Assembly (NCBI GenBank): GCA_016213895.1
Contig: JACQZJ010000028.1
Span: 1,653-65,652 of the forward strand
Length of the DNA: 64,000 nt
Reading direction: 5' to 3'
Source of the DNA: Planctomycetota bacterium
GTDB lineage: Bacteria; Planctomycetota; B15-G4; JADJEK01
Shown: positions 4,094-21,999 of the stretch, one piece after another
Numbering within the stretch: the stretch's first letter is position 1
Layout: every line of letters starts with the position of its first letter
Notes under the pieces: model-generated
Databases searched by the model: none
What the model saw: only the letters and a program-made list of their open reading frames with translations
Told to the model about the DNA's origin: nothing
Made by a program: the position numbers and the translations under genes

Positions 4094-6589
4094 ATGGCGG
4101 CTTCCTTGCTCAACCGGCTGAAGAAGGCCTTGAACGTCCTGCGAGGCAAGCCGCCGGTGGCGGAACCGCAGCTCGCCGAGCTGAAGGCGCGGTTCAACGA
4201 CTTCAAGCACCTGTTGCGCGCCAACAACGACGTGCTGGGAATCATCGCGGAGATCCAGAACCGCCTGGACGAGAGCGGCTACCTGGGGCTGGACTTCCTG
4301 CGCTCGCGCTACATCGCCGCCAGCGCCAAGGTCCTGCTCATGATCCGCCACATGAACCTCATCAGCGGCGGGCGCTATCAGAGCCTGCTCGCCCCGTTCA
4401 TCGAGATCCGCCTGAAGGCGGATGACCTGCTCGCGGCCCAGGCAGGGGGCGAAGCACGGAACCCGTTCCTCCCGCTGGAGTCGGTGCTCCCGGGAATGGA
4501 GCACCTCTGCGGCGCCAAGGCGGCCAACCTGGCACAGCTCGCGCGTGAGGGGCTGCCAGTGCCCCCCGGGTTGGTCATCAGCACGGCCGCGTTCCGCCGC
4601 GTCATGGACGAATCCGGCCTCGACGCCACGCTGCGCAAGGGAGCACTGCAGGCGGAGGGGCGGGAGTGGGAAGCGCTCGAACGCTTCAGCCGCCGCATCG
4701 CGGACGAGTTCGAGCGGCTGCAGCTGCCGGCGGATCTCGAGCGCGAGCTGGTCGACCGCGCCGCCCAGTTGTCCGAGGCGCACGGCGGAGCGAGCCTCTC
4801 GATTCGTTCCAGCGCCCTCGGCGAGGACACGCAATCCTCGTTCGCCGGCTTGTACCAGAGGCTCGCCGACGCCGACGCCGAGATGGCGGCGCTGGTGCAG
4901 GTCATGGTCACGCCGGCGGCGAGCGGCGTGCTGTACACGCGCGATCCCCTGGGCGGCGGCGAAGACTTGATGCTGGTCAGCGCGGTTCCCGGACTGGGGC
5001 TCGGACTCGGCGACGGCTCCATCGACCCCGACGTGTACGCGGCCAGGGCTGGCGAGCGGCCGGTGGTGAACGTGCGGAACCTCGGCCGCCGGGGTCATTA
5101 CCTCGAGCTGGGTCCCGAGGGGCCGCGGCGGCGCGAGCTGGACGCCGCGGAGACGCGCGAGCCGCTTGTGCTCGCGGACGCCGTGCTGGAGCTGGTCCAA
5201 GTGGGCGCGCGCCTGCAGGATGTCCTCGGCGGACCGCTGGACGTCGAGTGGGTGCGGGACCGCGAAGGACGCTTCTGGATCCTCCAGGCGCGGCCGCTCT
5301 CGGTGCTGGAGTGGGCTGGCGCGGGCGCGCGCGTGCGCGTGAGCGCGCCAATGCTCCTCTCCGGCGGCCAGACAGCGAGGCCGGGCGCCGGCTGCGGGCC
5401 GGTCTTCCTGGTGAACGGACCGGAGGACATGGCGGCCTTCCGGGCGGGCGGCGTGCTGGTGGCGCGCGAATCGTCGCCGTCGCTGGCGTCGCTCCTGCCA
5501 GCGGCAGCGGCGGTGGTCACCGAGGTGGGAGGCGTGGCCGGGCACCTCGCCGCCCTGGCGCGCGAATATGGAGTGCCGGCGCTGCTCGGCGCCCGCGGCG
5601 CGCTCTCCCGGCTTCCCGCAACGGAGACCGTGACGGTGGACGCATCCGGCCGCAAGGTCTACTCCGGCCGCGTCGGCGCGCTCCTCGACCAGGAGGTGAC
5701 GGTCGGCTGGGCCCGCTCCACGGCGCGGGCCGCGCCCATCTGGCTGACGGCAGCGCAGCTCATCAGCCGGCTCAACCTCACCGATCCCCGTTCACGGGAC
5801 TTCAGCCCCAAGGGCTGCCGCAGCTTCCATGATCTGATCCGCTACATGCACGAGCTGTCGTTCCTGGAGATGTTCAACCTCGGAGACGAGGTCGGCCAGA
5901 CGGCTGGCGCCCAGGCGCGCCGCCTGCACGCGCTCCTCCCCTTCGAGCTGTGGTTCGTGGACCTCGGCGGCGGGCTCGCGGACGAGGGCGCCAAGCAACT
6001 GGAACCGGGGGCAGTGATCTCCAGGCCTGCCGCCGCGTTTCTCGGCGGGCTGCTCGACCCGCGTGTCCACTGGGGCGGGCCGCGCCCGCTCAGCCTGAAG
6101 GGGCTGGCTTCGGTCTTCACCGGCACGCTGCTGACGCCGCCGAACTCCGGCCAGATACGGGACCTCGGCAACCGCGCCTATGCGGTCGTGGGAGAGGACT
6201 ACTTCAACTTCAGCTGCCGGGTCGGATACCACTTCACCGCGCTCGACTGCTACTCGGGGTCGCGCATCAACGACAACTACATCGGCTTCCGCTTCCACGG
6301 CGGCGCGGCCACGGAGGACCGCCGCTCGCTCCGGGCGGAGATGGTCGAGCGCATCCTGCAGGGGCTCGAGTTCGCGGTGGAGCGGAACGGCGACGCGGTG
6401 AGCGCCTTCCTGAAGAAGCGATCGGCCGACGAGATCGAGAAGGTGCTGGCCGAGATGGGCCGGCTCGTGCTCTTCACCCGGCAGATGGACATGCTCATGG
6501 ACGGACCGGCCATGGTCGAGTGGCTCGCCCGGGCGTTTGCCCGCGGCGACTACAACCTGAGCCGCGCCAAGCCCGAACCGCGGCCCTGA
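4094..6589 (+). CDS. PEP-utilizing enzyme family protein (PEP synthase / pyruvate phosphate dikinase-like ATP-grasp domain plus swivel His domain) with atypical N- and C-terminal domains
   Basis: PPDK_N-like nucleotide-binding start (LCGAKAANLAQLAREGLPVPPGLVISTAAF), a DVEWV motif, and a mobile His domain (VGGVAGHLAALAREYGVPALLG). The C-terminal ~330 aa is not a clear PEP-binding TIM barrel. Confidence 0.8.
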   Translation: MAASLLNRLKKALNVLRGKPPVAEPQLAELKARFNDFKHLLRANNDVLGIIAEIQNRLDESGYLGLDFLRSRYIAASAKVLLMIRHMNLISGGRYQSLLAPFIEIRLKADDLLAAQAGGEARNPFLPLESVLPGMEHLCGAKAANLAQLAREGLPVPPGLVISTAAFRRVMDESGLDATLRKGALQAEGREWEALERFSRRIADEFERLQLPADLERELVDRAAQLSEAHGGASLSIRSSALGEDTQSSFAGLYQRLADADAEMAALVQVMVTPAASGVLYTRDPLGGGEDLMLVSAVPGLGLGLGDGSIDPDVYAARAGERPVVNVRNLGRRGHYLELGPEGPRRRELDAAETREPLVLADAVLELVQVGARLQDVLGGPLDVEWVRDREGRFWILQARPLSVLEWAGAGARVRVSAPMLLSGGQTARPGAGCGPVFLVNGPEDMAAFRAGGVLVARESSPSLASLLPAAAAVVTEVGGVAGHLAALAREYGVPALLGARGALSRLPATETVTVDASGRKVYSGRVGALLDQEVTVGWARSTARAAPIWLTAAQLISRLNLTDPRSRDFSPKGCRSFHDLIRYMHELSFLEMFNLGDEVGQTAGAQARRLHALLPFELWFVDLGGGLADEGAKQLEPGAVISRPAAAFLGGLLDPRVHWGGPRPLSLKGLASVFTGTLLTPPNSGQIRDLGNRAYAVVGEDYFNFSCRVGYHFTALDCYSGSRINDNYIGFRFHGGAATEDRRSLRAEMVERILQGLEFAVERNGDAVSAFLKKRSADEIEKVLAEMGRLVLFTRQMDMLMDGPAMVEWLARAFARGDYNLSRAKPEPRP

Positions 6590-6608
6590 ACAGTCCCGCG
6601 CCGCGCGC

Positions 6609-8120
6609 TCAGCGCGCGACGCGGAAGCCGATGCTGTCGCTCCTCCCGTCGAACGGAAACGAGAAGGAGCGGACCGCCGAGCGGCAGGAACTCGGCCCGC
6701 TGCGCCAGGATCCGCCGCGGAGCGCATGCCCGAAGCCCGTGTCCTCCGCGCTCAGCGGGTCTTTCCGGGGCGAACGGGCGTAGAAGTCCTTGTCGTACAC
6801 GTCCGCGCACCACTCCTCCACGTTTCCCAGCATGTCGAGGAATCCCCACGGATTCGCCGCGTACGTGCCCACGGGCGCCGTGAAGGCGCGGCCGTCGCCA
6901 TGGGGGAACACGTCAAACGGCGGCGGATGCCGTGCGCGCTTCAGTTGATCCTGGAAGTTCCCCGCGCCCTTGCCGTCCAGCTCGTCGTCGCCCCACCAGT
7001 ACGCCGTGCTCGTGCCCGCGCGGCACGCGTATTCCCATTCCGCCTCGCTGGGCAGGCGGTAGCCGTATGCCGCGCAGAACGCCTGCGCGTCCTTCCACGA
7101 CACCTGCGTCACTGGGTGCGAGTCGTCGCCCAACCCCGCCGCGTCGTCTGTGTATCCCCCTTCGCCCGACTCCTCTGCCTCGGTCCGATATCCAGTCCTC
7201 TTCGCGAACTCGCGCCACTGTCCGACCGTCACTTCCGTCTCGCTGAGGTAGAACAGCTTCGTGATCTCCACCTCGTGCCGCGGACGTTCGTCGTCAAACA
7301 GATACCCCTCCACCTCCCACTGCGGTGACCCCATCTCGAACTTCCCCGGATCCACCAGGATGAACGTGATCCCCGTCGCCGGGTCGCGCGCCTTCTTCGC
7401 GAAGCCCGCCGCTTCCACCCAGAATACGTCGCCGATCAGCGCCTGCGCATCGCCGTATGACATCGTGATGTATGCCGCGGCCGCGGAGTCCTTCATCACG
7501 AAGGCCCCGCCTCCCGGCTGCTCCGCATCGTCGACGCAGCCCACGATGAGCCGACTGTGGCCCGAACCCGCGGCTACGGGGTAGCCCTTGGCCAGCACGG
7601 CCTTGATCTCGCGCAGGTGTTCGTCCGTCAGTCCAGCTTCGGGCTTCCACGGATTGATCCAGTGGACCCGAAGGTCCAGACCCCGAATCTCCTTGGCCCG
7701 CGTCACCGCCTCCCCCGACGGCTTGAGCCCTGCATCGAACTCCGCCTGGTAGGGCATGTCCGCTTCCAAGCAGATGCCGTGCTCCTCGAAGCCCCGCAGC
7801 AAGTCATGGAAGAACCCACCGTCAGTCGGATCGCGCATGGCGGCGTTCGACGCCCAGTTCAGATACTCGACGCTGAGCGCGGTTCCCCGCCCGTAGTGCC
7901 GGGAGACGGCAAGCTCGAGCGCGCCCACAGTCGCGAAGACCGAGCAGGTGCCCCGCGCCCCCTGGCTGCGGGGCACAAGGCCCCACCCCTCGAGCTGCGG
8001 CCGCAGGTCCACGGACGCTGGCGCCTCCCCCTTGCCGGCGGGCAGATCGCCCTCCCGCAGAACCGCGGCGCCGAGTACCAGCGCCGCCAAGGTCCGCAGG
8101 AACCCTGAGGCTGCTCGCAT
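6609..8120 (-). CDS. Secreted fusion protein: papain-like (C1 family) cysteine peptidase domain plus FGE-sulfatase / SUMF1 domain
   Basis: N-terminal signal peptide. Papain-type active-site Cys context (QGARGTCSVFATVGALE). C-terminal formylglycine-generating-enzyme fold motifs (HPVTQVSWKDAQAFC, LPSEAEWEYACRAG, GNVEEWCAD, RGGSWRS, GFRVAR). Confidence 0.75.
   Translation of the reverse strand: MRAASGFLRTLAALVLGAAVLREGDLPAGKGEAPASVDLRPQLEGWGLVPRSQGARGTCSVFATVGALELAVSRHYGRGTALSVEYLNWASNAAMRDPTDGGFFHDLLRGFEEHGICLEADMPYQAEFDAGLKPSGEAVTRAKEIRGLDLRVHWINPWKPEAGLTDEHLREIKAVLAKGYPVAAGSGHSRLIVGCVDDAEQPGGGAFVMKDSAAAAYITMSYGDAQALIGDVFWVEAAGFAKKARDPATGITFILVDPGKFEMGSPQWEVEGYLFDDERPRHEVEITKLFYLSETEVTVGQWREFAKRTGYRTEAEESGEGGYTDDAAGLGDDSHPVTQVSWKDAQAFCAAYGYRLPSEAEWEYACRAGTSTAYWWGDDELDGKGAGNFQDQLKRARHPPPFDVFPHGDGRAFTAPVGTYAANPWGFLDMLGNVEEWCADVYDKDFYARSPRKDPLSAEDTGFGHALRGGSWRSGPSSCRSAVRSFSFPFDGRSDSIGFRVAR
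7250..7420. repeat. Duplicated DNA segment shared by the two FGE paralogs (copy 1)
   Basis: Roughly 85% nucleotide identity to 9105..9280 (GCGAAGAAGGCGCGCGAC...GGGATCACGTTCATCCTGGT...). The upstream regions also share a CGCCCAGGATCG motif. Confidence 0.7.
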
Positions 8121-8397
8121 GCATTCTCTCCGTCACGGCCTCGCCACGTCGCCCGGCCTGCCACGCCCGCGCCGGCCGCGCGCCAGGGTGCGCCAGGATC
8201 GCCGCTCTCGGCCAGCAGCGCAACCGGCTTGGGTTCCGGCAATGGGCGCGACCGTGGTCATAGCGCCGCGCAGCCTCCACCTTGCCACGGCCAGATGCCG
8301 CGCGGGGGCACTTGCTCTGCTCCGGCGCACTTCCCTGCCCGCGTGATCCGGGAGGGAAGGACGGGTAAGAGGGGAAGAGGATAGAGGATAAGAAGAA

Positions 8398-9429
8398 TCA
8401 GGGAGTCCTCGCGAGACGGAACCCGATGCCGTCGTACCGGCCGTCAGGAGCGTACCACAGGCGGAACGCGGAGCGGCAGTCCCTCGGATTGCTGCACCAG
8501 GCGCCGCCGCGAAGCGAACGGGCCCCGCCGCCGGCGCGCCCGGCATTCACCGGGTCCAGCTTCTGCGAACGGCCGTAGTAGCGCTCGTCGTACACGTCCG
8601 CGCACCACTCCCATACGTTCCCCAGCATGTCCCGAAAGCCCCACGCGTTTGCCGCGTACGTGCCCACCGGCGCCGTGAACACATGCCCGTCATCAAACGA
8701 GAACACTATCCCGCCGAAGTGGAACTTCCTCTTCGCCGCCTGGTCCGCGAAGTTGCCCTTGCCCTCGCCGCCGGACTCCTCATCGCCCCACCAGTACGCC
8801 GTGCTCGTGCCCGCGCGGCACGCGTACTCCCACTCCGCCTCGCTCGGCAACCGGCAGCCGAATTCCTTGCAGAAGGCCTGGGCGTCGTTCCACGACACCT
8901 GCGTCACCGGGTGCAGGTCGCTGAACTCGTACTCGTGCAAAGGTATCGGCTTTGCCCAGATCGCCCCCTTGCGCAACTCCCCACCATTTCCGGCTGCGTT
9001 GACGGTCCATCCCCCCTCACCGCTCTCCTCGGCGTCGGTCCGGTACTTGGTCTTCCGTGCGAACTCCCGCCACTGCCTTACCGTCACCTCGGTCTCCCCG
9101 AGATAGAACGGCTTGCTGATGTCCACCTCGTGCTGCGGGCGTTCGTCGTCAAACACTTCTCCCTCCACCACCTCCTCTTGCGGCGAACCCATCTGGAACG
9201 TCCCCGGCTCAACCAGGATGAACGTGATCCCCGTCGCCCGGTCGCGCGCCTTCTTCGCGAAGCCCGAAGCCCCGGCCGTGCCGTCCAGGACCTCCCAGCC
9301 CTCCGGGACCTTCCCCGCCGCCGGCGCCGCCTCGCCGCCCGCCTCCGCCTCCTGCCTGGCCCACGAAGCCGCCATCGCGGCCAGTGCCACCAAACCTCCC
9401 AGCGCCGCAACCTTCCGCTTCCCGCTCAC
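8398..9429 (-). CDS. Secreted FGE-sulfatase / SUMF1 domain protein (paralog of the downstream fusion protein)
   Basis: GTG start followed by a signal peptide. The same SUMF1 motifs are present (HPVTQVSWNDAQAFC, LPSEAEWEYACRAG, GNVWEWCAD, RGGAWCS, GFRLAR). The N-terminal region (GFAKKARDRATGITFILVEPG) is near-identical to the internal junction of the upstream gene. Confidence 0.8.
   Translation of the reverse strand: MSGKRKVAALGGLVALAAMAASWARQEAEAGGEAAPAAGKVPEGWEVLDGTAGASGFAKKARDRATGITFILVEPGTFQMGSPQEEVVEGEVFDDERPQHEVDISKPFYLGETEVTVRQWREFARKTKYRTDAEESGEGGWTVNAAGNGGELRKGAIWAKPIPLHEYEFSDLHPVTQVSWNDAQAFCKEFGCRLPSEAEWEYACRAGTSTAYWWGDEESGGEGKGNFADQAAKRKFHFGGIVFSFDDGHVFTAPVGTYAANAWGFRDMLGNVWEWCADVYDERYYGRSQKLDPVNAGRAGGGARSLRGGAWCSNPRDCRSAFRLWYAPDGRYDGIGFRLARTP
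9105..9280. repeat. Duplicated DNA segment shared by the two FGE paralogs (copy 2)
   Basis: See copy 1. The pattern indicates a tandem gene duplication that includes the 5' flank. Confidence 0.7.
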
Positions 9430-9826
9430 CTTCCTGCTCCTTCACGCAAGAACGTCCGCTTCGACGCCGCGATGCTACCACCAAGGCCCCACGCCTGCCT
9501 CCCGCGGCACGGCCTCGCCGCCTCCATCCGCGCTGCGCTGATGCGCGTTCCGCGCGCCCGCGTCGCCCAGGATCGTCGGTCGCCACGCCGCCCGTGCCTT
9601 CACCGCACCCAACCGCCCGCATCGCCGCCGCCGCCAACGAGCCACTCGTCGTTCCTCGCGAGCTGGATGCACCGAAAATCGCCCACCCGCCTCCGGATCC
9701 CAGGGCACCCCCGCGGCGCTCGTCACGGGAGGCATCCGCGGCGTCCGTCCCTCTCCACGCGCACTGGTCCGATTGTCATTTATCGATTCCTCCTCTCCCG
9801 CTGCCAGGCCGCATCATTGTCGTCTC

Positions 9827-11794
9827 TCAGTTCTCAATCACAATGGTCAGTGGCTCAGTCTCCCTCGAACACCACCGGGAAGTCCCATCGCCAAAGAGAA
9901 CCTCGCACTCATCCTCGTTCTTGAGCAGCACCACCCGTCCACGCCCGTTCTCGATGTAGCAGGTCACGGACTCGCTGGAGCCCTTCGGGCGCACGCGCAC
10001 AGATCTCGCCTCTATCCCATGACCATCACCGCTCACGAAATGGAACACCTGTACACGAAGCTTGTTCCTCATGTCGATCGAAGGAACCGAAACCGCCTCA
10101 CCGGGACGGCGTGGCAACGCAACCGAGACCGCCGCTGACTCCGCCAGCAGTCGTCCATTGGCGACAAGCCCAATCCTACCCTCGAAGGGTACGAGAAGCG
10201 CCGTAATGGAATAGCCTCCGTCAGGGCCAACAGGAGCAGACCGGCGGCAACCTGGCGGTCCCGTCTCCACGGACAACAACCCCGCGACTAGGGCATCTTC
10301 CTGTGTATCCAGAAGAACCGCACCAACTAAGTCAACCGCTGCTCCCAACTTGAGAGTCACTTCGGTGGACCCCGGCGGCAACAGCAATCCTCCTCCGGGC
10401 ACCAATGGTGCCGACGTTCCGTCACGAGATCCGAAGGAAACAAGGACCTCCTCGCAATCAACGAGTCCCCGGACTTCGTAACTACCATCCTCAGCCGACA
10501 CACCCAGCAGCTCCTGCCCGTCAGTCCACGGCAGCTCATTCTGACTCATACCGCGTGGCTCCACCTTGACCCAGGCTCGCCGCACCGGCTCGCCACTGCT
10601 CAACACAACCCGGCCACTGATGATCACTGGCCATGCCTCCAGGGAAACGTCTCCGAGATGCCTCTCGCCGTCTCCGGGACCTCCCCGAGACACGCGCATA
10701 CGGGACCACCCGCCCTTTGGCGCTCTCGCCGAGGGCCGAATCGCGATGTCGCACATGAAGTCCCCCTCGCCATCGGGACCGGGCACAGAGAAAGTCGCGC
10801 CCGCATCCGTCTTGCCTCGCGGAAAGGCAGATCGGTGCTTCCCAGTGCAGTCTGCCATTCGCATGTGAAACTCCGCGTCGGCCACGGGCAGTGCGTCGCC
10901 ATCCAGGAGTCGTCCAGACAGCACGACACGCCGCCGGCCAAGCACGATCGACACCCTTCGACAGTGCCCCGCGTATTCTGGGCCCTTCGCAAGCTCAGTT
11001 GCCCAGGAGAGAGCACCGGGTCGGTCGCCGGCGCCGATCTCCAATTCGCCACCGAGTTCAACACCTCGAAACACGACTTCGCCGCCAACGACCGGACACC
11101 TCGCAATCGTCTGAAAATCACCCGTCGGCCGTCTACAGGCTAGCGTGACTTCGCTGTCTCTGGGAATCTCTTGGTCCGCTGGATGCGGCATCACAGAGAC
11201 CTGAATGGTACCCACTGGCCCTAGCACGACAGTCACCAGCTCCCGCAGATCCGAAAGGTCCACCTCCTGAACCAGAGCCCGGTTCGTGCCTCGCGTTACC
11301 ACGACTTGGGCCATCCCCCCCTCGCGCGTGACCTTCTCACGGAGGGATGGGCCCACTTCGATTGTCGCAATCCCACTGGCGGGGTCAGTGGCAGCCGAGG
11401 CGATGCAGCGCACCGCTTCGGAATCGCCGCTGGGCGGTCCCGCGGCGAGGCACACATCGCGGTAGCCAACCGGGCTGCCGTCCGAGTCCAACACTCTCAC
11501 CCGCAAGGTCCCTTGCGCTGGCTCCGTAAAGGAGCCAGCGATGTCCGATTCCGAATGGCCGGCTACAGCGCGGACCGGCTCCTCGCCGGCCTCTTCTCGG
11601 TGAACAGGGTCTGTCTCACTACCCGGGCTGCCACCAACCTCCGTACCGCTGGCGCCCTCCTCATCCGACTGCCCTGATGGAACGCTGCAACGCTGCGCTG
11701 TGCGCACCACCAAGACTATGATGAGGAGAGCGACGATTGAAGCGGCAAAGAGCACCCGCTTCTGAGGTAGGCTTCCTATCCGGCTGCCAGTCAT
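9827..11794 (-). CDS. Membrane-anchored protein with a large extracytoplasmic domain of beta-sandwich repeats (carboxypeptidase regulatory-like)
   Basis: Short N-terminus then a TM helix (LFAASIVALLIIVLVV). Repeated LRVRVLDSDGSPV / GSYEVRGL-type motifs recur, as in the neighbouring large proteins. Confidence 0.6.
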   Translation of the reverse strand: MTGSRIGSLPQKRVLFAASIVALLIIVLVVRTAQRCSVPSGQSDEEGASGTEVGGSPGSETDPVHREEAGEEPVRAVAGHSESDIAGSFTEPAQGTLRVRVLDSDGSPVGYRDVCLAAGPPSGDSEAVRCIASAATDPASGIATIEVGPSLREKVTREGGMAQVVVTRGTNRALVQEVDLSDLRELVTVVLGPVGTIQVSVMPHPADQEIPRDSEVTLACRRPTGDFQTIARCPVVGGEVVFRGVELGGELEIGAGDRPGALSWATELAKGPEYAGHCRRVSIVLGRRRVVLSGRLLDGDALPVADAEFHMRMADCTGKHRSAFPRGKTDAGATFSVPGPDGEGDFMCDIAIRPSARAPKGGWSRMRVSRGGPGDGERHLGDVSLEAWPVIISGRVVLSSGEPVRRAWVKVEPRGMSQNELPWTDGQELLGVSAEDGSYEVRGLVDCEEVLVSFGSRDGTSAPLVPGGGLLLPPGSTEVTLKLGAAVDLVGAVLLDTQEDALVAGLLSVETGPPGCRRSAPVGPDGGYSITALLVPFEGRIGLVANGRLLAESAAVSVALPRRPGEAVSVPSIDMRNKLRVQVFHFVSGDGHGIEARSVRVRPKGSSESVTCYIENGRGRVVLLKNEDECEVLFGDGTSRWCSRETEPLTIVIEN

Positions 11795-12316
11795 TCGACC
11801 TGCCCTCGGGACGTGTTTGGGCGTTTCGGGTGATCACGGTGACGCGTTTGACGTCCTCCGAACGGCCCTTGGCCCGCGGGGTCGCCGACGCACCGTCGCA
11901 AGATGAGTGACCTCTCAACGCTCGCCCGCAACGCGTCACAGTACGCCATTTCACGGTGGACGATCGTACGGTCCGGTCGAGAAAATGGGGCTTCGACGTC
12001 TGGTGTGGGTAGCCACTTGGCCGTCCTCGGCGTTGCGCATGGAGTATTGACGATTCCGTGAGGTTGGGTGGCGGGGGTCGGGGAGGCCACGCGCCGCCCG
12101 CGGCTCCGGGGGCGCGACCGCGCCGAGCCGCAGCTGCTCGTCACGGCCGTGCGTCCCCTCGCCGCCGGGCTGCGCTCGCAAGCCCGCCGGACGACGCCAG
12201 TTGTGCGCCCGCCCCTTCGAAGTGAAGGGCGGGCGCTCCAGGGCCGATGTGCTTGAGGAGGGCCGGGGAGTCGTCCAGCCTATGCGGCGTTACCAACACG
12301 AAAGGTCGAAGCCGCG

Positions 12317-12811
12317 TTGTTCGCCATGGAGCGGCCCCGCCTGCACGGCAATCAGTACTCGGTGCCGCTGCCGGTGGGACGGCAGGTGCAGGTGCGCGAA
12401 ACGAGCCAGTCGATCGAGATCTACGACGGGCCGCGGACGGTGGCAACGCACCAGCGCGTGGAGGAGCCGGCCAACAAGCGGGTGACGGATCCGGCGCACC
12501 GCCCGCCACGAGGCGAGGGCAAGAAGATGCGCCTGGCTCAGGAGGAGGCGGCGCTCCTCGCGCTCGCGCCGGAGCTCCTGTCGTACGTCGACGGGCTCAG
12601 GAAGTCCGGGCAGGGCCTGCCCGTGCTGTGGCTGCGCCGCCTGCTGTCGCTCGTGCGCGACTACCCGCGCGCGCCGCTGGTCGCCGCCATCCAGGAGGCG
12701 GCGCGCTACGGGCTCTTCGATCTGCAGCGCCTGGAGCGCATGGTGCTGAAGCGCATCGGGGAGGACTTCTTCTTCCTCAACGGCGACAACGGAGAAGACC
12801 GGAATGAATGA
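12317..12811 (+). pseudogene. istA: IS21 transposase IstA, C-terminal fragment only
   Basis: The segment HGNQYSVPLPVGRQVQVRETSQSIEIYDGPRTVATHQR is the conserved IstA C-terminal domain. No upstream in-frame continuation exists. Confidence 0.7.
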
Positions 12812-13560
12812 CGAAGTCGAGCAGCTCTTGAAGAACCTGCACCTGTCGCGGATCGTCCAGGTCCTCGACGACGAGTTGGCCGCGGCCCGAGGAAAGGATC
12901 CTGGCCACGAGGAGTTCCTCCTGCGCCTCCTGCGCGCGCAGTGGCACGACCGCCAGGAGAAGGCCCTGGAGTGGCGCATCAAGCAGGCGCGCCTGCCTTT
13001 CCCCTGGACCATCGAGTCGTTTCCCTTCCAGCGCCAGACGGGTGTGAGCCGGCGACAGATCCGGAACTTCGCGACCCTGGAGTTCGTGCCACGGGCCGAG
13101 AACATCGTCTTCGTGGGCAAGACCGGCGTGGGCAAGACCGGGCTGGCGGTCGGGCTGTTGCTCAAGGCGCTGCAGAACGGCTACCGGGCGCTCTTCATCA
13201 AGGCCCAGGAGTTGTTCGACGAAATGTACGCCTCCCTCGCCGATCGCTCGACGCCGCGCTACATCCGTCGCCTCAGCCGCACCGACGCCCTGGCGGTCGA
13301 TGACCTCGGGCTGCGGCCGCTGGTGGGCGACGAGCCGCTGGACCTCTACGAGGTCATCCGCCAGCGCTACGAGCGCGGCTCGATGATCGTGACCTCGAAC
13401 CGGGCGATCGCGGAATGGCCGCCGCTCTTCCTGGACGCCCTGGTGGCGACCGCCGCCATGGACCGCCTGCTGCACGACGCGCAGGTGATCGTGATGGAAG
13501 GCGACTCCCACCGCAACCCGCCGACGACGAAGAGGCGGAAGGGGTGGAAGATGGTGGTGC
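12804..13560 (+). CDS. istB: IS21 helper ATPase IstB (3' end undefined; the frame reads through to 14612 without a stop)
   Basis: Walker A (VGKTGVGKTGLAVGL), Walker B (LAVDDLG) and a C-terminal LLHDAQVIVMEGDSHR motif. The native protein should end about 15 aa later; the long open tail is GC-driven read-through. Confidence 0.7.
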
Positions 13561-13989
13561 GGACGTCCGCCACGCGCGCGGAGCGACGCGGTGAGTCTCG
13601 TGTGCTGGTCACCGCCGTGGAGAGGCCGTGGACAGCTGACGCGGCGTGGAAAACTCCTTGCCTGTTTGAACGGCGGAGTTTCCCACACCGCTACCTGCCC
13701 ACGGCCTCCCCACGGCTCGTCCCCCGAAGAGCCCACGCCGGGCCGTCCGCTGCCGCTCTTTCCGCCCCCGATCCCTGGCCCGTTTCGCAAGAACCATGCC
13801 GCCAGCCGCCGTGGACCAGCCTGGCTGACCCGACCAGCGATTCTGCGCGGCGCCCACACCGCCTTCGTGCACAACGCCGAGCACGCCATCCGAACGTGCT
13901 CGACAAGTGGACTTGCTTGGCCGAACCAAGGGTGGACTTTGCAGGCCGGTCCTTGACAGAAACGGCCCTCTTCATCCGAGTAGACCACA

Positions 13990-16124
13990 GGCAGGACTCG
14001 CCCGGCGAGGACCGCGACGGACGCTTGGCCAGCGTTTCGCGTGAGCAGGATGCGCGCGTCGGGGACGAGACGTCCGTCGCGCCGGAGGACAACGCCGGCG
14101 ACCAGCGGCGGGGGCATCGCGATGTCTCCAAGAGCGATCGCGCCGCTTGCCGGGGCGTCGGCGATGCGCACGGAGCGGTCCGCGGCGCCAGCGGCGGCCG
14201 CCAGCGGGCGCAGCGTCAGCGTTGTGCCAACGGGCCGCTGCCGGTACTCCGCGACCTCGAAGGAGAAACGCCCGCAGTCATCGGTCTGGATCCACGAGCG
14301 CCTCACGCTGGAGTTCGCGTCCGCCTGCAGGTCCGCTTGGAAGATCTCGTGCGGGACGGGCGCGCCGTCTTCATGGACGAGCCGGCCCGACACGCTGACG
14401 AATCGGCCGTCCACGCTCAGATCGATGCGGGCAACGTCACCGGCCGATGTCGGCCCGTTCCCGGTCGTGCTGACGGGCTCCTGGTCCCAGCGGAGTGCTG
14501 CGCGCGCCTCCAGTGTGACTGCGATGCCGACGGGCCAGAAGTCGACTTTGCCGCTCACGGTCTTCCGCGTGAGCATCGTCAGGGCCGGGCTGAGTGCATC
14601 GTCTGCCGATGAGAGGGTGATCACTGCGCCATCGGCCAGCGGTGCCCCCGCGCATCCGGTGGTTTGGACGATGACCCGGCCTGTCGGAGGGCAGATCAGG
14701 GTCACCGGTTCACTGGGCCAGAGGCGCACGTCACCCGGGACCGTCGTCGCCACGGGATGAGCAAGCGGGAAGGCCAGGGCGACGGAGAGGACTGCTTGGG
14801 AATGCGGCGGAGGAGGATCGACCTTGGGCACAAGGCGCGCGAGCCCGCGCGCGTGGTCGGTTCGTGCGATCGCCAGGAATCTGGGTGTCTTCGTCCCGGC
14901 GCTCGGCGTCGTGCAGAGGAGCGCGACTGGAACATCGCCGACAGGCCGCGAGCAGGCGTCGACGACCCTCACGGCCAGGGAGGCCAGCGGCTCCAAAGAG
15001 ACCTCGACAGGGTCTTGTTGGCCGCTGCGAATGAGCGTCTTCCCAAACAGAGACTGACCGACGCGAGCGATGATCGTCGCTCCCATCGGGCCTGGCCGTG
15101 GGACGCAGGCGTTGCCATCCGCACCGGCCACGTCGCGGTACGTGAGCGAGCCGATCGCATCGAGCCAGTCGGCCAGGCTCAGTCGCTCCAGGTCGTGAAG
15201 CGCTTCGGCAAACGCCGCATCGAGGCAGCATCGGCCCTGCTCGATGAACAGAACCTCCGCTCCTGCCACGGGCTCCCCCGTGTCGGCTCTGACCACCCGC
15301 ACGGCCAGAGCAGGGGCGGATGCCGCCGCATCCGTCGGCGCTGATGCCAGTGGCACCCGGCTGGATTCTACCGGGGGGGGATCGGCGGAGACGGACTGCT
15401 TTCGGACAGGCGCTCTCCCAGCCCCTGCGGGCTGCGTGCCGGGAGATGGGATGTCGTCTCGGAACACCCAGATCGAGGATCCGGTCAGGATCGCCGCGAG
15501 CAGCACGGCAAGGGTCAGCAGTTTGCTCGCCACCAGCAGTCCACCCATCATCGATGCGTTCGCCTGCGGAGATCCCGATGCCAGCGGGAGCATCGCGGAA
15601 AGCCAGGCGGAACGGTCCCCGCCGTGTCTGCGGTCCAGTTGCTCTCTGAGCTTCCCGAGCGCGCGCGTCAGCCGGCTGTTCACTGTGGCCGGACTTGTTC
15701 CCTCGCGGCGCGCGATTTCCCTCGGGGCAAGCCCCTCGAAGAAGCGCCCCAGCACGGTGCCCCGGTAGGGCTCCTCGAGAGAGATCACTGCCGCTGCGAG
15801 CAGGCGCTGCTGCTCGAGGCGCTCCACGATCTCTTGCGCGGAGAGTCCGGGCTCAGGTCGCGCACCCTGCCTCTCGCGCCTCAGCCGGCGGGCGCTGCTG
15901 CGATGCTGTGCTGCCGCTACGTTCTTCACGATCCCGGCGAACCAGCCGCGGAAGGATCCTGTCGGCCGCGCGTCCGAAGTCAGAGCCGTGGAGTACGCAT
16001 CCTGGACGACGTCTTCGGCAAGATGAGAGTCCCCGACCAGCCGGCGGGCCAGGGCGATGACCCAGCCGCCATCTGCCGCAAGAACTTCGATTTCCCGGAA
16101 CGTCCGATCGGACATGGCATCCAT
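13990..16124 (-). CDS. ECF sigma factor fused to a TM helix and a large extracytoplasmic beta-sandwich domain (sigma/anti-sigma-like fusion); 3' end uncertain and possibly truncated by the IS21 remnant
   Basis: N-terminal sigma-70 region 2 (DVVQDAYSTALTSDARPTGSFRGWFAGIVKN) and region 4 (LEEPYRGTVLGRFFEGLAPREIARREGTSPATVNSRLTRA). A TM helix (LLTLAVLLAAILTGSSIWVF) follows, then AVRVVRADTGEPV-type repeats. The sequence becomes non-protein-like past roughly residue 700. Confidence 0.6.
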
Positions 16125-18531: not shown

Positions 18532-21500
18532 CTACTGCAGCACCACCTGCACGACCTGATCGCTCGCGCCGTGCTGGATGTCGAGCGAGGCAGCGCCGGC
18601 ACCGGAGGTGATCGTCGCGGAGTAGACGCCGGGCTGGAGCGCGCCCAGGTCATAACGCCCCTGCTGGTGGCCGCCGAAGGCCTCGCTCAGGGCTTCGCCG
18701 AAGGTGATGAAGCGGGTCAGCTCCGTTCCCGCGGAGTCGAAGAGGCGGATGCTGGCCGCGCTGACCGGCTGGCCCACCGCGTCCCGCACCTCGACCACGA
18801 GGTTGGCCCCGACGCACAGCTCGATGTCGCGCTCGGTCACCTCGGAGGTGCGCACGTGCACGCCAGCGGCCACGCCAGGAGCGAAGCCCTGCGCTTTGAC
18901 CACGATGGAGTAGACGCCGGAGCGCATGCCGTCCGCGCTGTAGGCGCCTGATTCGCCCGTGAGGATCTCGCCGAAGTGGGCCTCGACCTCGTTGTTCCGC
19001 AGGAAGAAGAGCGTGGCGCCCTGGATCGGCCTGCCGCTCGCGTCGCTGACCTGGCCGTTCAAGGCGCCGCCGGGCTCGAGCAGGAAGTCCACTCCGCTGG
19101 TGAGTTCGCCGTCTTTCACCTCCACGAGCAGGGGCTCGGAGCGGCAGTAGCCGCAGGCGCCGATGCCGAACATGCCTGGCCCGCCCGCGGCCACGCTGTA
19201 GCGTCCGGGCGGCAGGCCGGTGGCGCGGAAGCGGCCGTCCTTGCCGGTGAAGAGGTCCACGACTCTGCGCGACCTGGCCGCGCGCGTCACGGCGTCGACC
19301 GTCGCTCCCTCGTCGAGAGTGTCGATGGACACCCGGGCGCCGGAGATCACTTTGTGGAAGGCCGCGGCGCACACGCCGCCCTCGATCCCGGTGGCGTCGA
19401 GCGCGAAGTCCAGCTCGTACTCTTCGACCTCGGGAATGGTGACGTCAAAGGACTGGCGCGTGGTCGCGGAGAGGGAGGATCCTCCCTGGATCGTCACGGT
19501 CCACTCGCCCGCCGGCATGTTCTTGACCTCGTAGCGTCCCTTGTCGTCGACCGCGGTGAGGCGCAGCCCCTCCTGGATGCCGCCGCCGCCCTCTCCCGGC
19601 GTGAACGAAAGGAACGCGCCGCGGAGCGGCTCGCTTCCTTCGGTGACCATGCCCCGGACCGTGACGCCCGCAGCCTCGCCGCCGGCGAAATCCACCACCT
19701 TTTCTTCGCCCGCCTTCAGCCTGACCGTGCGCGTGGCCAGACCCTCGACCAATGACGACATCATCGTCTCGGAGCCGATGTCGATCGACCCGCCGAGCTT
19801 CTGCACGGTGTAGGAGCCCGCGGCCAGGCCGGTCAGCTGGTAGCGTCCCTCCGCGTCCGTGTTGGTCATGATCGGCATCAGGTTGCCGGCCACGGTCGCC
19901 AGCACGACGTCGCCTCCGCGGGGCGAGCCGTCCGCGGCCGTGCCCGTGCCGCGGATCACTGCGCCGCGCTCGAGCCGGATGACGACGCCCTCCGCCACCT
20001 GCCCGTCGCCCAGCAGGACGCGGGCGGAGCTGCCGGGAGCGTAGCTGCGGGCCGTGACCGAAAGCCGATGGGCGCCCGCCTTCAGGCCGGTGATCGCGAA
20101 GCGGCCGCTCGCATCGGTATGCGTGTCGGAGTAGGGGGCAATCGGGTCCGGCTGGATCAGGGTGTTGCTGGCGCGCGTGGAGACCAGGGCGTTCGGCACC
20201 GGGGAGCCGGTCAGGGCCTCCAGCACCACGCCGCGGATCGCCGCCTCAGGGGGCAGGATGAGGATCACGCCGCGGACCTCTTCGCCGGGCCGAAGCTCGA
20301 TTTCCGGCGTGCTCTCGACGCCGTGCCCATCGGCTCTCACCCGGATGCGCCAGGTCCCCGCCTCGAGCTTGTGGAGAGTGAACGTGCCGTCGGCGCTGGC
20401 CACGTGCTCGAGCGGCGAGGGCGCGAAGCTCTTGGCGTCCAGGATGTCGAAGGGGCGGGTCGCGGCCGCCACGTAGCGCTGGATCGGCTCTGCATCGACG
20501 CGCGACAGGACGATGCCGGAGATGGATCCGTGCCGCTCGAGGACGACGGTGTGGTCGCTCGTGCCCGTGTCGACCCTCTCCAGGTGGCCGGTGGTCATCC
20601 CGTCCGCGCGGGCCGTGACGTCGTAGCTGCCTGGCTCGAGGGCCGGCGACACGAAACACCCGTTGTCGTCAGCGCGCGTCACCGAGCCGCCGAAGTCCTC
20701 GGCGCTCTCCGGCGGGACGCTCTTCGTGACTCCCATGCCCAGGAAGCCGCGGGGCTGGATGAAGCCGACGCTCGCCCCGGGCACGGGATGGTCCTGGTCG
20801 TCCACGACCGTGCCGGCGATGCGTTCGCCGCCCTTGAGCACGATCGGATCGGCGAGTTCCAGACCCCCTGCCGGCAGCTCCACGCGGCGCAGGGTGGCCG
20901 GGGAGAATCCCTCCGCCCGAACGGTCAGGCTGTACCGGTCAGCCGGCAGCCCGCTGATCTCGAAATTGCCCGAGGCGTCGCTTCGCCTCTCCACGGCGTC
21001 GAGGTCGTACGGGTCGATCTTGGCCAGCATGAACGTGGTCTCGGCCTTGCGGGCTGTCACCCGGGCCTCGGCGATTGGCTCTCCCCGCTCGCTCATGATG
21101 CGGCCGCGCAGGGCCGCGCCCTGCCCCGCGACGAGGAGGATCTGGGCGGTCTCACCCGGCGCGAGAGTCAGCCTTTCCGCGGCCGGGAGCAGGCCCTCCG
21201 GCTTGACGCGACAGACCATGGCCGCCTCCGCCGGCACTCCGGTGAACTCGAATCTTCCGTCCTCGCCGCACGCTGTGGTTCCGCTGCGCCAGGTCAGCCC
21301 CTCACGCATGATCTCCATCGCATCCAACGCGGGCTGGAGCATGACGCGTTCCGCGGCCAGGCCCGCTCCGCTTGGCGGGCGGGCCGCGCCGCGCACCACC
21401 CCGGCCGGCACGACGAGGACGGTCACCAGGCCCGGACCGCCCGCGGCGTCGACCCGAACGAGGTCGCGCGTGGCCGCGAACGGAGACAGTGCCCGGAGGA

Positions 21501-21999
21501 ATCCCCTGAGCCTGGGCCCGCGCAGCTCGAACGAACCGTCGGCGGCGATGGAGCCGCGGGCGAGCGGCACGGCGTCGGCCCGTCCTTGGCGCGGAAACTC
21601 GCTGTGGGCGAGCGCGGGGAGACGGACGAAGGGCGGCGGTTCGGAGAGGAGCACGACCTCACCATCGGCCACGGGCGAGCGGTCCAGCGCCCAGAGCACG
21701 AAACCCTCGAGAACGTCCTCGCGGACCGCGGCCTCGCTCCGGTCCGGCAGCGGCGGGGCTTCGATGTCCGGCAAGGTGACGTTCGGCGAATCCGCTCCGG
21801 CGAGAACTCCCTGGCCGGTCTCGAGCACGACGGGCGTGTCCTGATTACCCCGGTCAGCAAGCACGAGGAGGCAGACGACGGCGAGCGCCGCAAGCAGCGC
21901 GGCGGCGACAAGGAGAGTGCGTGTTCTCTGGGCCATGGCTGCGCTGGCATCCTCGAGTTTGGGCTGTTCACTCGGTATGAGAGGCGCCGCAACGGTCAT
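18532..21999 (-). CDS. Large membrane-anchored protein made of carboxypeptidase regulatory-like (CarbopepD_reg) beta-sandwich repeats
   Basis: N-terminal anchor (LLVAAALLAALAVVCLLVLA). At least 8 repeats of the type GRYEVKNMPAGEWTV, GRFRATGLPPGRYSV and GAYSADGMRSGVYSIVVKAQGFAP. Confidence 0.75.
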   Translation of the reverse strand: MTVAAPLIPSEQPKLEDASAAMAQRTRTLLVAAALLAALAVVCLLVLADRGNQDTPVVLETGQGVLAGADSPNVTLPDIEAPPLPDRSEAAVREDVLEGFVLWALDRSPVADGEVVLLSEPPPFVRLPALAHSEFPRQGRADAVPLARGSIAADGSFELRGPRLRGFLRALSPFAATRDLVRVDAAGGPGLVTVLVVPAGVVRGAARPPSGAGLAAERVMLQPALDAMEIMREGLTWRSGTTACGEDGRFEFTGVPAEAAMVCRVKPEGLLPAAERLTLAPGETAQILLVAGQGAALRGRIMSERGEPIAEARVTARKAETTFMLAKIDPYDLDAVERRSDASGNFEISGLPADRYSLTVRAEGFSPATLRRVELPAGGLELADPIVLKGGERIAGTVVDDQDHPVPGASVGFIQPRGFLGMGVTKSVPPESAEDFGGSVTRADDNGCFVSPALEPGSYDVTARADGMTTGHLERVDTGTSDHTVVLERHGSISGIVLSRVDAEPIQRYVAAATRPFDILDAKSFAPSPLEHVASADGTFTLHKLEAGTWRIRVRADGHGVESTPEIELRPGEEVRGVILILPPEAAIRGVVLEALTGSPVPNALVSTRASNTLIQPDPIAPYSDTHTDASGRFAITGLKAGAHRLSVTARSYAPGSSARVLLGDGQVAEGVVIRLERGAVIRGTGTAADGSPRGGDVVLATVAGNLMPIMTNTDAEGRYQLTGLAAGSYTVQKLGGSIDIGSETMMSSLVEGLATRTVRLKAGEEKVVDFAGGEAAGVTVRGMVTEGSEPLRGAFLSFTPGEGGGGIQEGLRLTAVDDKGRYEVKNMPAGEWTVTIQGGSSLSATTRQSFDVTIPEVEEYELDFALDATGIEGGVCAAAFHKVISGARVSIDTLDEGATVDAVTRAARSRRVVDLFTGKDGRFRATGLPPGRYSVAAGGPGMFGIGACGYCRSEPLLVEVKDGELTSGVDFLLEPGGALNGQVSDASGRPIQGATLFFLRNNEVEAHFGEILTGESGAYSADGMRSGVYSIVVKAQGFAPGVAAGVHVRTSEVTERDIELCVGANLVVEVRDAVGQPVSAASIRLFDSAGTELTRFITFGEALSEAFGGHQQGRYDLGALQPGVYSATITSGAGAASLDIQHGASDQVVQVVLQ

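Follow-up and report, generated by a model that had tools for sequence, protein, structure and literature searches.

Among the papain-family (C1A) cysteine peptidases of bacteria, function is known for only two members, and the short (xylellain-type) and multidomain forms, although widespread, were not analysed in a 2023 survey of the family, according to which a missing I29 prodomain is typical of the 'short' bacterial forms (PMC10380794). Domains with the fold of the formylglycine-generating enzyme (FGE, also SUMF1; Pfam FGE-sulfatase) commonly lie C-terminal to caspase or trypsin peptidases; in the VMAP systems, the FGS domain invariably has its partner domains on the N-terminal side, and the TvpA-type FGE-fold domains in the variable proteins of diversity-generating retroelements (DGRs) are ligand binders (PMC7159879). 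The FGE-sulfatase domain is also present in 33 of 671 bacterial metacaspases, and the authors of that work speculated that proteolysis and formylglycine modification are combined in these proteins (PMC3501461). Neither a described architecture that combines C1 with FGE-sulfatase nor a planctomycete papain-like family was found in the literature searched, an absence that is not proof. Such an architecture is the subject of the present analysis: a papain-like peptidase domain joined in frame to an FGE-like domain in a predicted secreted protein, the product of gene A, which lies next to a second FGE-like gene, B, in a 64,000-nucleotide stretch of DNA from a member of the Planctomycetota (positions 1,653 to 65,652 of contig JACQZJ010000028.1, assembly GCA_016213895.1; hereinafter, the window).

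The order of the domains in A, with the protease N-terminal and FGE-sulfatase C-terminal, is the same as in the metacaspase/orthocaspase-FGE and the trypsin/caspase-FGS fusions, and the documentation of such caspase-family cases (PMC3501461, PMC7159879) makes the description of a protease-SUMF1 fusion as unusual, given in the first-pass annotation of this DNA, an overstatement. The differences are nevertheless clear: the metacaspases are clan CD caspases whereas the peptidase of A has the clan CA papain fold; the caspase/trypsin-FGS fusions belong to cytoplasmic nucleoside triphosphatase conflict systems whereas A is predicted to be secreted; and the C1 family, unlike the metacaspase-FGE layout, also shows the reverse order, FGE followed by C1. 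An assignment to a defence system was considered and rejected: PADLOC matched neither A nor B nor the upstream gene. The two genes and the main parts of their products are:

6609-8120, minus strand: gene A, 503 amino acids, defined by its open reading frame (ORF) and Pfam domains, an exact match to MBI4878697.1 (P0121)
8398-9429, minus strand: gene B, 343 amino acids, defined by its ORF and PF03781, an exact match to MBI4878698.1 (P0124)
8052-8120, minus strand: putative Sec signal peptide of A, residues 1 to ~23, MRAASGFLRTLAALVLGAAVLRE, with a basic n-region and a hydrophobic core
7413-8018, minus strand: C1A-like papain-fold cysteine peptidase domain of A, residues 35-236, from the structural model, fold matches, profiles and PF00112
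6612-7412, minus strand: FGE-sulfatase domain of A, residues 237-503, from PF03781, the structural model and fold matches
9358-9429, minus strand: B's putative signal peptide, MSGKRKVAALGGLVALAAMAASWA and then RQ, with a hydrophobic core and an A-S-W-A motif

The layout of A is thus signal peptide, C1A-like peptidase and FGE-sulfatase, and that of B is signal peptide and FGE-sulfatase. Gene A starts with ATG immediately preceded by GGAGAG, which resembles a ribosome-binding site, and gene B with GTG preceded by the Shine-Dalgarno-like AAGGAG; the GC content at third codon positions (GC3) is of the coding type in both (0.86-0.87), within a window of high overall GC content (63-75%). The first-pass annotation rightly described two adjacent genes on the same strand whose products both carry N-termini consistent with Sec-type signal peptides. 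In each protein, by hydropathy and inspection of the sequence, the n-region is basic and the hydrophobic core ~12 residues long. In A, the Kyte-Doolittle maximum over 11 residues is 2.76, and the structural model contains a helix at residues 7-17 with a low predicted local distance difference test (pLDDT) score; the standalone homologs of the protease of A have canonical signal peptides, and the N-terminus of B is shared with P0122, a related protein discussed below. Neither signal peptide contains a cysteine and no lipobox is present. Export is accordingly a prediction for both A and B. The public names of the two proteins, whose records belong to a 110.5-kb contig of a Planctomycetota MAG (metagenome-assembled genome), are 'SUMF1/EgtB/PvdO family nonheme iron enzyme' (A) and 'formylglycine-generating enzyme family protein' (B); the former overlooks the protease domain, which is covered by no NCBIfam model, and implies an iron enzyme without support.

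The identification of the N-terminal domain of A as a peptidase is based on homologs, a structural model and conserved residues. Residues 1-236 of A, which include the motif QGARGTCSVFATVGALE pointed out in the first-pass annotation, replace the signal peptide and linker of B, as had been proposed there. Both Pfam families expected in such a protein, PF03781 and PF00112, are matched in A, the latter marginally: Peptidase_C1 covers residues 34-129 with 21.7 bits versus a gathering cut-off of 20.7. The scores of close homologs straddle this cut-off (16.4-33.3 bits) and many members of the protease family fall below it, which places the family at the edge of PF00112. Residues 33-239 of A retrieve 390 homologs at E <= 1e-3 from a clustered protein collection, several of which carry the source name 'C1 family peptidase'; the best of these homologs are standalone secreted proteins of 240-260 amino acids with 70-74% identity. 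A profile of the protease family, compared with 1.84 billion representatives, retrieves 676 clusters (at 50% identity) at E <= 1e-10, of which 239 also reach E <= 1e-30.

The AlphaFold (AF2) model of the protease domain, built from an alignment of 117 homologs, is confident, with pLDDT of 92 and a predicted template modelling (TM) score of 0.86. The protease and FGE domains were modelled separately, and a combined alignment was discarded given that MAFFT set the FGE homologs on the protease region. In the Foldseek search with the protease model, cathepsins S, L and K fill the top 50 matches in the Protein Data Bank (PDB), with E-values down to 7e-11, TM scores of 0.6-0.69 (0.63-0.69 for the best matches) and ~20% sequence identity. 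The top PDB match of the family profile is xylellain (3OIS; E 6e-7), and in this alignment GHSRLLVGY is paired with GHAVLCVGY and KDS with RNSW, which puts Asp211 of A at the position of papain Asn175. The predicted active site consists of:

7962-7964, minus strand: Gln53, predicted oxyanion-hole residue equivalent to papain Gln19, from conservation, with the codon checked
7944-7946, minus strand: Cys59, predicted nucleophile in the motif QGARGTC, from conservation, aligned with the catalytic Cys region of cathepsins and xylellain
7557-7559, minus strand: His188, predicted catalytic base in the motif GSGHSRLIVGC, from conservation, aligned with GHAVLCVGY of xylellain
7488-7490, minus strand: Asp211, predicted third residue of the triad in the motif VMKDS, at the papain Asn175 position

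Across the 117 aligned homologs, Q53, C59, H188, D211, S212 and W234 are invariant. The C1A signature residues Cys25, His159 and the oxyanion Gln19 have their counterparts in C59, H188 and Q53, such that, of the His/Asn pair of the triad, His is present along with Cys59 and Asn is replaced by Asp in the clade of A; a sister clade (loci L035, L056, L079 and L087; proteins P0264, P0312, P0325, P0332 and P0343) retains the canonical Asn (FRNS). The substitution is a conservative variant, and Asp-for-Asn variants occur elsewhere in clan CA. Because the catalytic residues are present and invariant, the possibility that the domain is a non-catalytic version of the fold, with the triad missing, fails; judging from the sequence and the model, the domain is predicted to be catalytically competent. 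There is no match to the I29 prodomain in the Pfam scan of A, and the protease fold begins ~10 residues past the predicted signal peptide, in A as well as in the standalone homologs.

With xylellain from Xylella fastidiosa and Lpg2622 from Legionella, the domain shares the ~200-residue papain fold and the Gln, Cys and His motifs; unlike these proteins, the A clade has Asp rather than Asn as the third residue of the triad, and the family differs further in its signal peptide, the lack of conserved disulfide cysteines and the many domain fusions. The cathepsins L, S and K are the closest structural matches, and their N-terminal half aligns with A in sequence, but A is only ~20% identical to them, has no prodomain and no zymogen form, contains Asp in place of Asn175 and belongs to a bacterial, predicted secreted context.

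The C-terminal domain of A directly adjoins the peptidase (junction VFWVE|AAGFAKKARD) and is a member of the FGE-sulfatase family. PF03781 covers residues 253-503 of A with 194.8 bits (E 2.6e-57; profile positions 5-255 of 255) and residues 69-341 of B with 211.6 bits (E 2e-62), versus a cut-off of 23.3. The AF2 model of the domain from A has pLDDT of 86 and an intact FGE fold, with weak spots at the site of a deleted loop (model residues 85-100) and at residues ~155-180. The FGEs of S. coelicolor and T. curvata are matched in Foldseek with TM scores of 0.78-0.81 and 30-34% identity, and PvdO about as well (TM 0.77-0.79). The sites at which the two proteins depart from the canonical enzyme are:

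6684-6716, minus strand: degenerate copper site of A, GGSWRSGPSSC, from the HMMER alignment to 2Q17/6MUJ
8476-8508, minus strand: Cys motif of B, GGAWCSNPRDC, from the alignment to 2Q17/6MUJ
7113-7142, minus strand: site of the loop deletion in A, from pairwise alignments, with low pLDDT at the site

A canonical FGE is recognized by the pair of Cu(I)-binding cysteines in a C-x4-C arrangement (human C336/C341, S. coelicolor C272/C277). Compared with GGSYLCHDSYC of S. coelicolor, the first Cys of this pair is replaced by Ser in A and the second is retained; B has two cysteines, but with C-x5-C spacing, so that its first Cys is one residue off the FGE register, and the Ser of GGS is replaced by Ala. 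With the first copper-binding Cys lost, A should be unable to act as a canonical formylglycine-generating enzyme, and its product is, on the evidence of this alignment, predicted not to be one. Furthermore, A lacks a conserved loop of ~20-23 residues that is present in B (NGGELRKGAIWAKPIPLHEYEFS), in the ortholog of A described below and in the FGEs, and contains a W-to-E change in the conserved NVWEW motif. Thus, A and B share the fold and PF03781 with FGE (human SUMF1; S. coelicolor 2Q17/6MUJ; T. curvata 6S07), and differ from it in the loss of the first Cu(I) Cys and the loop (A), in the shifted C-x5-C (B) and in the predicted extracytoplasmic location of both.

PvdO from Pseudomonas (5HHA) has the FGE fold, with a structural match to A about as good as that of the FGEs; it is periplasmic and lacks the catalytic cysteines. 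Together with PorK/GldK, TvpA and CalU17, PvdO belongs to the non-FGE members of the fold, from which A differs by its low NCBIfam scores and the lack of a lipobox. The scores are 100.6 for GldK versus a cut-off of 350, 42 versus 458 for GldJ and 106 versus 500 for PvdO; these scores and the lack of a Cys in the signal peptide led to the rejection of a GldJ/GldK/PorK or PvdO identity. The EgtB, OvoA and SenA models score 79-104 bits versus cut-offs of 360-420, with the match limited to the FGE-like part, and these identities were likewise rejected, the N-terminal domain of A being a papain fold rather than DinB-like. A DGR variable protein was discarded as well: the differences between A and B include all twelve types of substitution and are spread across the domain rather than adenine-specific.

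The in-frame fusion of the peptidase with the FGE/SUMF1 domain, as claimed in the first-pass annotation, is genuine, being repeated in an independent, syntenic metagenome-assembled genome (MAG). A scan of species-representative genomes yielded a 533-residue ortholog (L010:4001-5602) on contig DYIW01000088.1, a Phycisphaerae MAG labelled as Phycisphaera mikurensis isolate FI88_71_9. In this ortholog, signal peptide, C1-like and FGE domains follow one another as in A, to which it is 69% identical overall; the C1 domain alone is at 85% identity and the FGE domain at 69%. The shared neighbourhood includes a convergent PPDK_N/PEP-utilizers gene, followed by small ORFs, then TauE and a histidine kinase with a PAS domain. 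The nucleotide divergence between the two genomes is 14-24%, and the two assemblies are therefore independent. The possibility of an assembly or binning artefact, that is, a chimeric join or a single FGE gene mistaken for two, could draw on the fact that the protein cluster of A has one member on one contig and on a 44-nucleotide exact stretch common to A and B. However, the same fusion in the same neighbourhood appears in the independent assembly of a different organism, and 36% of the residues differ between A and B, which therefore are not copies of one gene; both a chimera and the collapse of a single gene are, on these sequence comparisons, effectively excluded.

The ortholog also reveals the way in which the fusion formed. 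Its junction reads VFWVEAPGRAPEGWEVVDGTPGAQGLARKARD, and it retains the linker PEGWEVVDGTPGAQG (the PEGWEVVDGT-GA-G segment), which is also found after the signal peptide of B and of P0122. This retention indicates that the C-terminus of a standalone protease was joined to an FGE-like gene just past its signal peptide; from the comparison of the two junctions, the lineage of the window lost 14 residues of the linker later. The ratio of nonsynonymous to synonymous substitution rates (dN/dS) versus the ortholog is 0.19 for the protease domain and 0.44 for the FGE domain, values that show purifying selection on both halves of the protein.

The C1-like module is not restricted to this locus or to this partner, and the description of it as grafted uniquely here does not hold: it is a promiscuous module with many partners. 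By the titles of the records, the family is found mostly in Planctomycetota (Phycisphaerae, Pirellulales, Planctomycetales and Isosphaeraceae), with some members from Verrucomicrobiota and Armatimonadota. Standalone proteins of ~250 amino acids make up more than half of the family; in ~35-40% of 80 species-level loci, the module lies inside a larger ORF, at either terminus. WD40 propellers are the partner in 10 of the 57 multidomain cluster representatives, and the remaining partners include TPR, DUF6807, GH127, DUF2961, BNR, S1/P1 nuclease, squalene-cyclase-like repeats, FG-GAP, ricin-type lectin (RicinB), PEGA and FGE-sulfatase. The set of Gln, Cys, His and the third residue (Asn in the sister clade) is kept in 26 of the 27 fusions checked, the exception being P0301, which is degenerate or truncated. 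The sister clade is further marked by an insertion of ~25 amino acids ahead of the catalytic His (GFRWPK...DGHS) and by a C-terminal DUF2961 in the three loci checked (L035, L056 and L079), and, in several other loci, the module is extended at its C-terminal side by ~570 amino acids.

C1-like and FGE-like domains have been joined independently at least four times, in both orders: C1 followed by FGE in A and its ortholog; FGE followed by C1 in P0125 and P0127; C1, PEGA and FGE in P0332; and a degenerate C1, FGE and Lon_C in P0301. The FGE domain of P0125, which is found on 17 contigs, one of them an Armatimonadota-labelled MAG, is ~32% identical to that of A. The Cys pair is missing from every C1/FGE fusion found (A, its ortholog, P0125, P0127, P0332 and P0301); at the copper site, there is no Cys in P0125 and P0301 and one in the ortholog, P0122 and P0332. 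Around the standalone homologs, no FGE gene is found and the context is not conserved; among the 80 species-level loci, an FGE match within 4 kb occurs only in the two that are fusions. An operon link between C1-like and FGE-like genes was rejected on these grounds: the connection between the two is by fusion only.

Considered as a whole, the above results suggest that A is most likely a secreted cysteine endopeptidase with a non-catalytic binding module of the FGE/C-type-lectin fold, an interpretation to which a probability of roughly 0.6 can be attached. Under this interpretation, the N-terminal part is a compact papain-fold peptidase (C1A, of the 'short bacterial' or xylellain type) without a prodomain and with the predicted active site Gln53/Cys59/His188/Asp211, and the C-terminal FGE-like domain would bind a ligand, be it a peptide, a protein or a glycan, and so retain the protease at or close to the extracytoplasmic substrate, in parallel to the presumable role of the WD40, TPR, ricin-lectin and FG-GAP modules in the sister proteins. 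The origin of the gene would be the in-frame joining of a standalone gene for a secreted C1-like peptidase with one gene from a local, multi-copy set of secreted FGE-like genes, the latter gene losing its own signal peptide in the process; gene B would be the surviving unfused paralog. The suggestion that SUMF1 serves as a binding or targeting module, made in the first-pass annotation, fits the loss of the copper-binding Cys in A and the same loss in all other C1-FGE fusions, but it does not extend to the family as a general rule, given that some of the partners are enzymes (GH127, DUF2961 and the nuclease) rather than binding modules. Several other observations weigh against the endopeptidase-with-binding-module interpretation. 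The PF00112 match is confined to the N-terminal half of the domain (profile positions 2-97 of 220), at a marginal score; the FGE domain of A is the most diverged in its clade, with 66-71% identity compared with 74-80% among its relatives, and this divergence, the loss of the loop and a dN/dS above that of the protease may reflect relaxed constraint rather than a defined binding role; and protease activity, export and ligand binding in this family are all inferred.

The same features could indicate that the fusion is a largely neutral accident, with the protease as the only part of consequence and the FGE-like domain of A decaying as a passenger. The exceptional divergence, the missing loop of ~20 residues and the 14-residue linker lost relative to the ortholog, the W-to-E change in NVWEW, a dN/dS more than twice that of the protease and the prevalence of standalone ~250-residue proteases in the family would all be compatible with such decay. 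It is nonetheless unlikely: the 267 codons are still open, the PF03781 match runs end to end, the model is confident with the FGE fold intact, dN/dS is well below 1 and similar to the value for B versus the ortholog (0.445), the fusion has been retained since the two MAG lineages split (dS, the synonymous divergence, of ~0.4-0.5), and C1/FGE fusions arose repeatedly. If, conversely, the FGE-like domain were a non-canonical redox version of the enzyme, protease and oxidase could act in sequence on one extracytoplasmic substrate, for example, in the maturation of an exported sulfatase or peptide. That active FGEs are the closest solved structures, that A keeps the second Cys and B has two cysteines beside the FGE register, and that a combination of proteolysis with formylglycine modification was already considered for the metacaspase-FGE proteins (PMC3501461) would agree with this scenario, and a residual redox function is most plausible for B. 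For A, the scenario appears improbable in view of the missing first Cu-binding Cys, the absence of any Cys at the site in P0125 and P0301 and the presence of only one in the ortholog, P0122 and P0332, the low scores with the EgtB, SenA, OvoA, PvdO and GldK models, the nearly equal match of A to PvdO, itself a protein of the FGE fold, and the lack of a sulfatase gene or another FGE or C1 copy beside A and B.

A different kind of explanation assigns the activity of the C1-like module to its own polypeptide: it could be a self-processing or sortase-like device that acts in cis to mature, release or anchor the fused cargo, with the FGE-like domain as one such cargo. The nearly always terminal location of the module, at either end, the great variety of unrelated cargos, including complete enzymes (GH127, DUF2961 and S1/P1 nuclease) that need no protease partner, the catalytic residues kept in nearly all of the fusions checked and the absence of a prodomain would all be accommodated. 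This explanation is improbable, however: the standalone proteins, which form the majority of the family, leave the module nothing to act on in cis, the junctions were seen to share no conserved motif for cleavage or sorting, and the closest folds are ordinary endopeptidases. Should it be true, gene A would represent a portable module of Planctomycetota and their relatives that captured a member of a local FGE-like family, and a new route of protein maturation or anchoring in bacteria with unusual envelopes.

Residues 237-503 of A and 54-341 of B are 64% identical (E 2e-119). The DNA identity of about 85% given in the first-pass annotation is correct for short segments (89% over 102 nucleotides and 84% over 180 nucleotides), but the long blastn blocks are at 74-80% (80% over 277 nucleotides and 74% over 519 nucleotides). 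The claim that the duplication is recent was overstated: dS between the FGE domains of A and B is 0.60, no smaller than the 0.41-0.51 between A and the ortholog from the other MAG, so the duplication is old. The similarity reported for the 5' flanks is present in one 78-nucleotide stretch (-87 to -10 of A and -152 to -75 of B) whose alignment score of 26 exceeds those of all 300 shuffles (13.1 +/- 2.0; z ~6.9), but it is weak, at ~68% identity, and was missed by blastn. The regions upstream of A and its ortholog share a stronger block, GCCGGAACCCAAGCCGGTTGCG...AGCGGCGATCCTGGCG (-120 to -33 of A; z 17.9). The two upstream elements are:

8130-8207, minus strand: stretch upstream of A that resembles 9504-9581 upstream of B, from local alignment, a possible regulatory element
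8130-8240 of the window and L010:3880-3985: conserved upstream block, part of which recurs upstream of B

The conserved block may be a regulatory site. A promoter and terminator scan of positions 6400-12200 yielded nothing, including no sigma-70-type promoter, an outcome that carries no information in this phylum. The window contains no further copy of an FGE or C1 domain. In a relative, the FGE paralogs P0128 and P0129 are arranged in tandem on the syntenic contig; there (L090:8346-10000), P0129 and P0128 share a nearly identical upstream repeat of ~170 nucleotides (local score 158, z 80), which points to a duplication of more recent date, with the promoter region included. The aforementioned P0122 (L001:4798-6726, contig DYIW01000079.1, from a related MAG) is a 642-residue secreted protein with two FGE-like domains head to tail, each preceded by the linker PEGWEVVDGTPGA-GFAKKARD, and a weak Lectin_C match. 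Although it is the best full-length match of A after A itself, P0122 was rejected as a relative of the fusion: it is an FGE-FGE protein with no protease domain and an unrelated neighbourhood.

The region upstream of B differs from that of the relative, in which pilus-like genes and a scaffold gap are found at the corresponding place, and no synteny is detectable. The ORF directly upstream of B (9827-11794, minus strand) encodes 655 amino acids with an N-terminal hydrophobic anchor and a weak CarboxypepD_reg match; it is located in the lowest-GC part of the window (63%), does not pass the coding filter of GC3 > 0.8 and may be foreign or fast-evolving. Further upstream, the ORF at 12777-16124 (minus strand) combines an N-terminal extracytoplasmic function sigma factor (Sigma70_r2/r4) with a CarboxypepD_reg-like region, and antisense to it is a remnant of an IS21-family element (12317-13550, plus strand) that consists of a fragment of the Mu-transposase C-terminus (12317-12811) and an IstB_IS21 ATPase gene starting at 12804. 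Disruption or rearrangement of the sequence upstream of B may be a consequence of the IS21 insertion. At 18532-21999 (minus strand), a protein of 1155 amino acids contains eight CarboxypepD_reg repeats (E 5e-85), and at least three proteins of this type, the latter among them, are encoded within 12 kb.

Nothing established is overturned by these findings: the parts of A are known, and the joining of a protease to an FGE-fold domain follows a known logic. What the locus brings into view is a clade of short secreted peptidases of the C1A type, large and as yet uncurated, with an Asp-variant triad, mainly in Planctomycetota and to a lesser extent in Verrucomicrobiota and Armatimonadota, whose C1 module has recombined with a very wide range of partners, including at least four joins to FGE-fold domains devoid of the copper site. 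Gene A thereby offers a concrete case in which to test whether the very abundant 'FGE-sulfatase' paralogs of these phyla have the non-enzymatic, ligand-binding role long suspected for them, and an entry point to the almost unstudied multidomain enzymes of the bacterial papain family.

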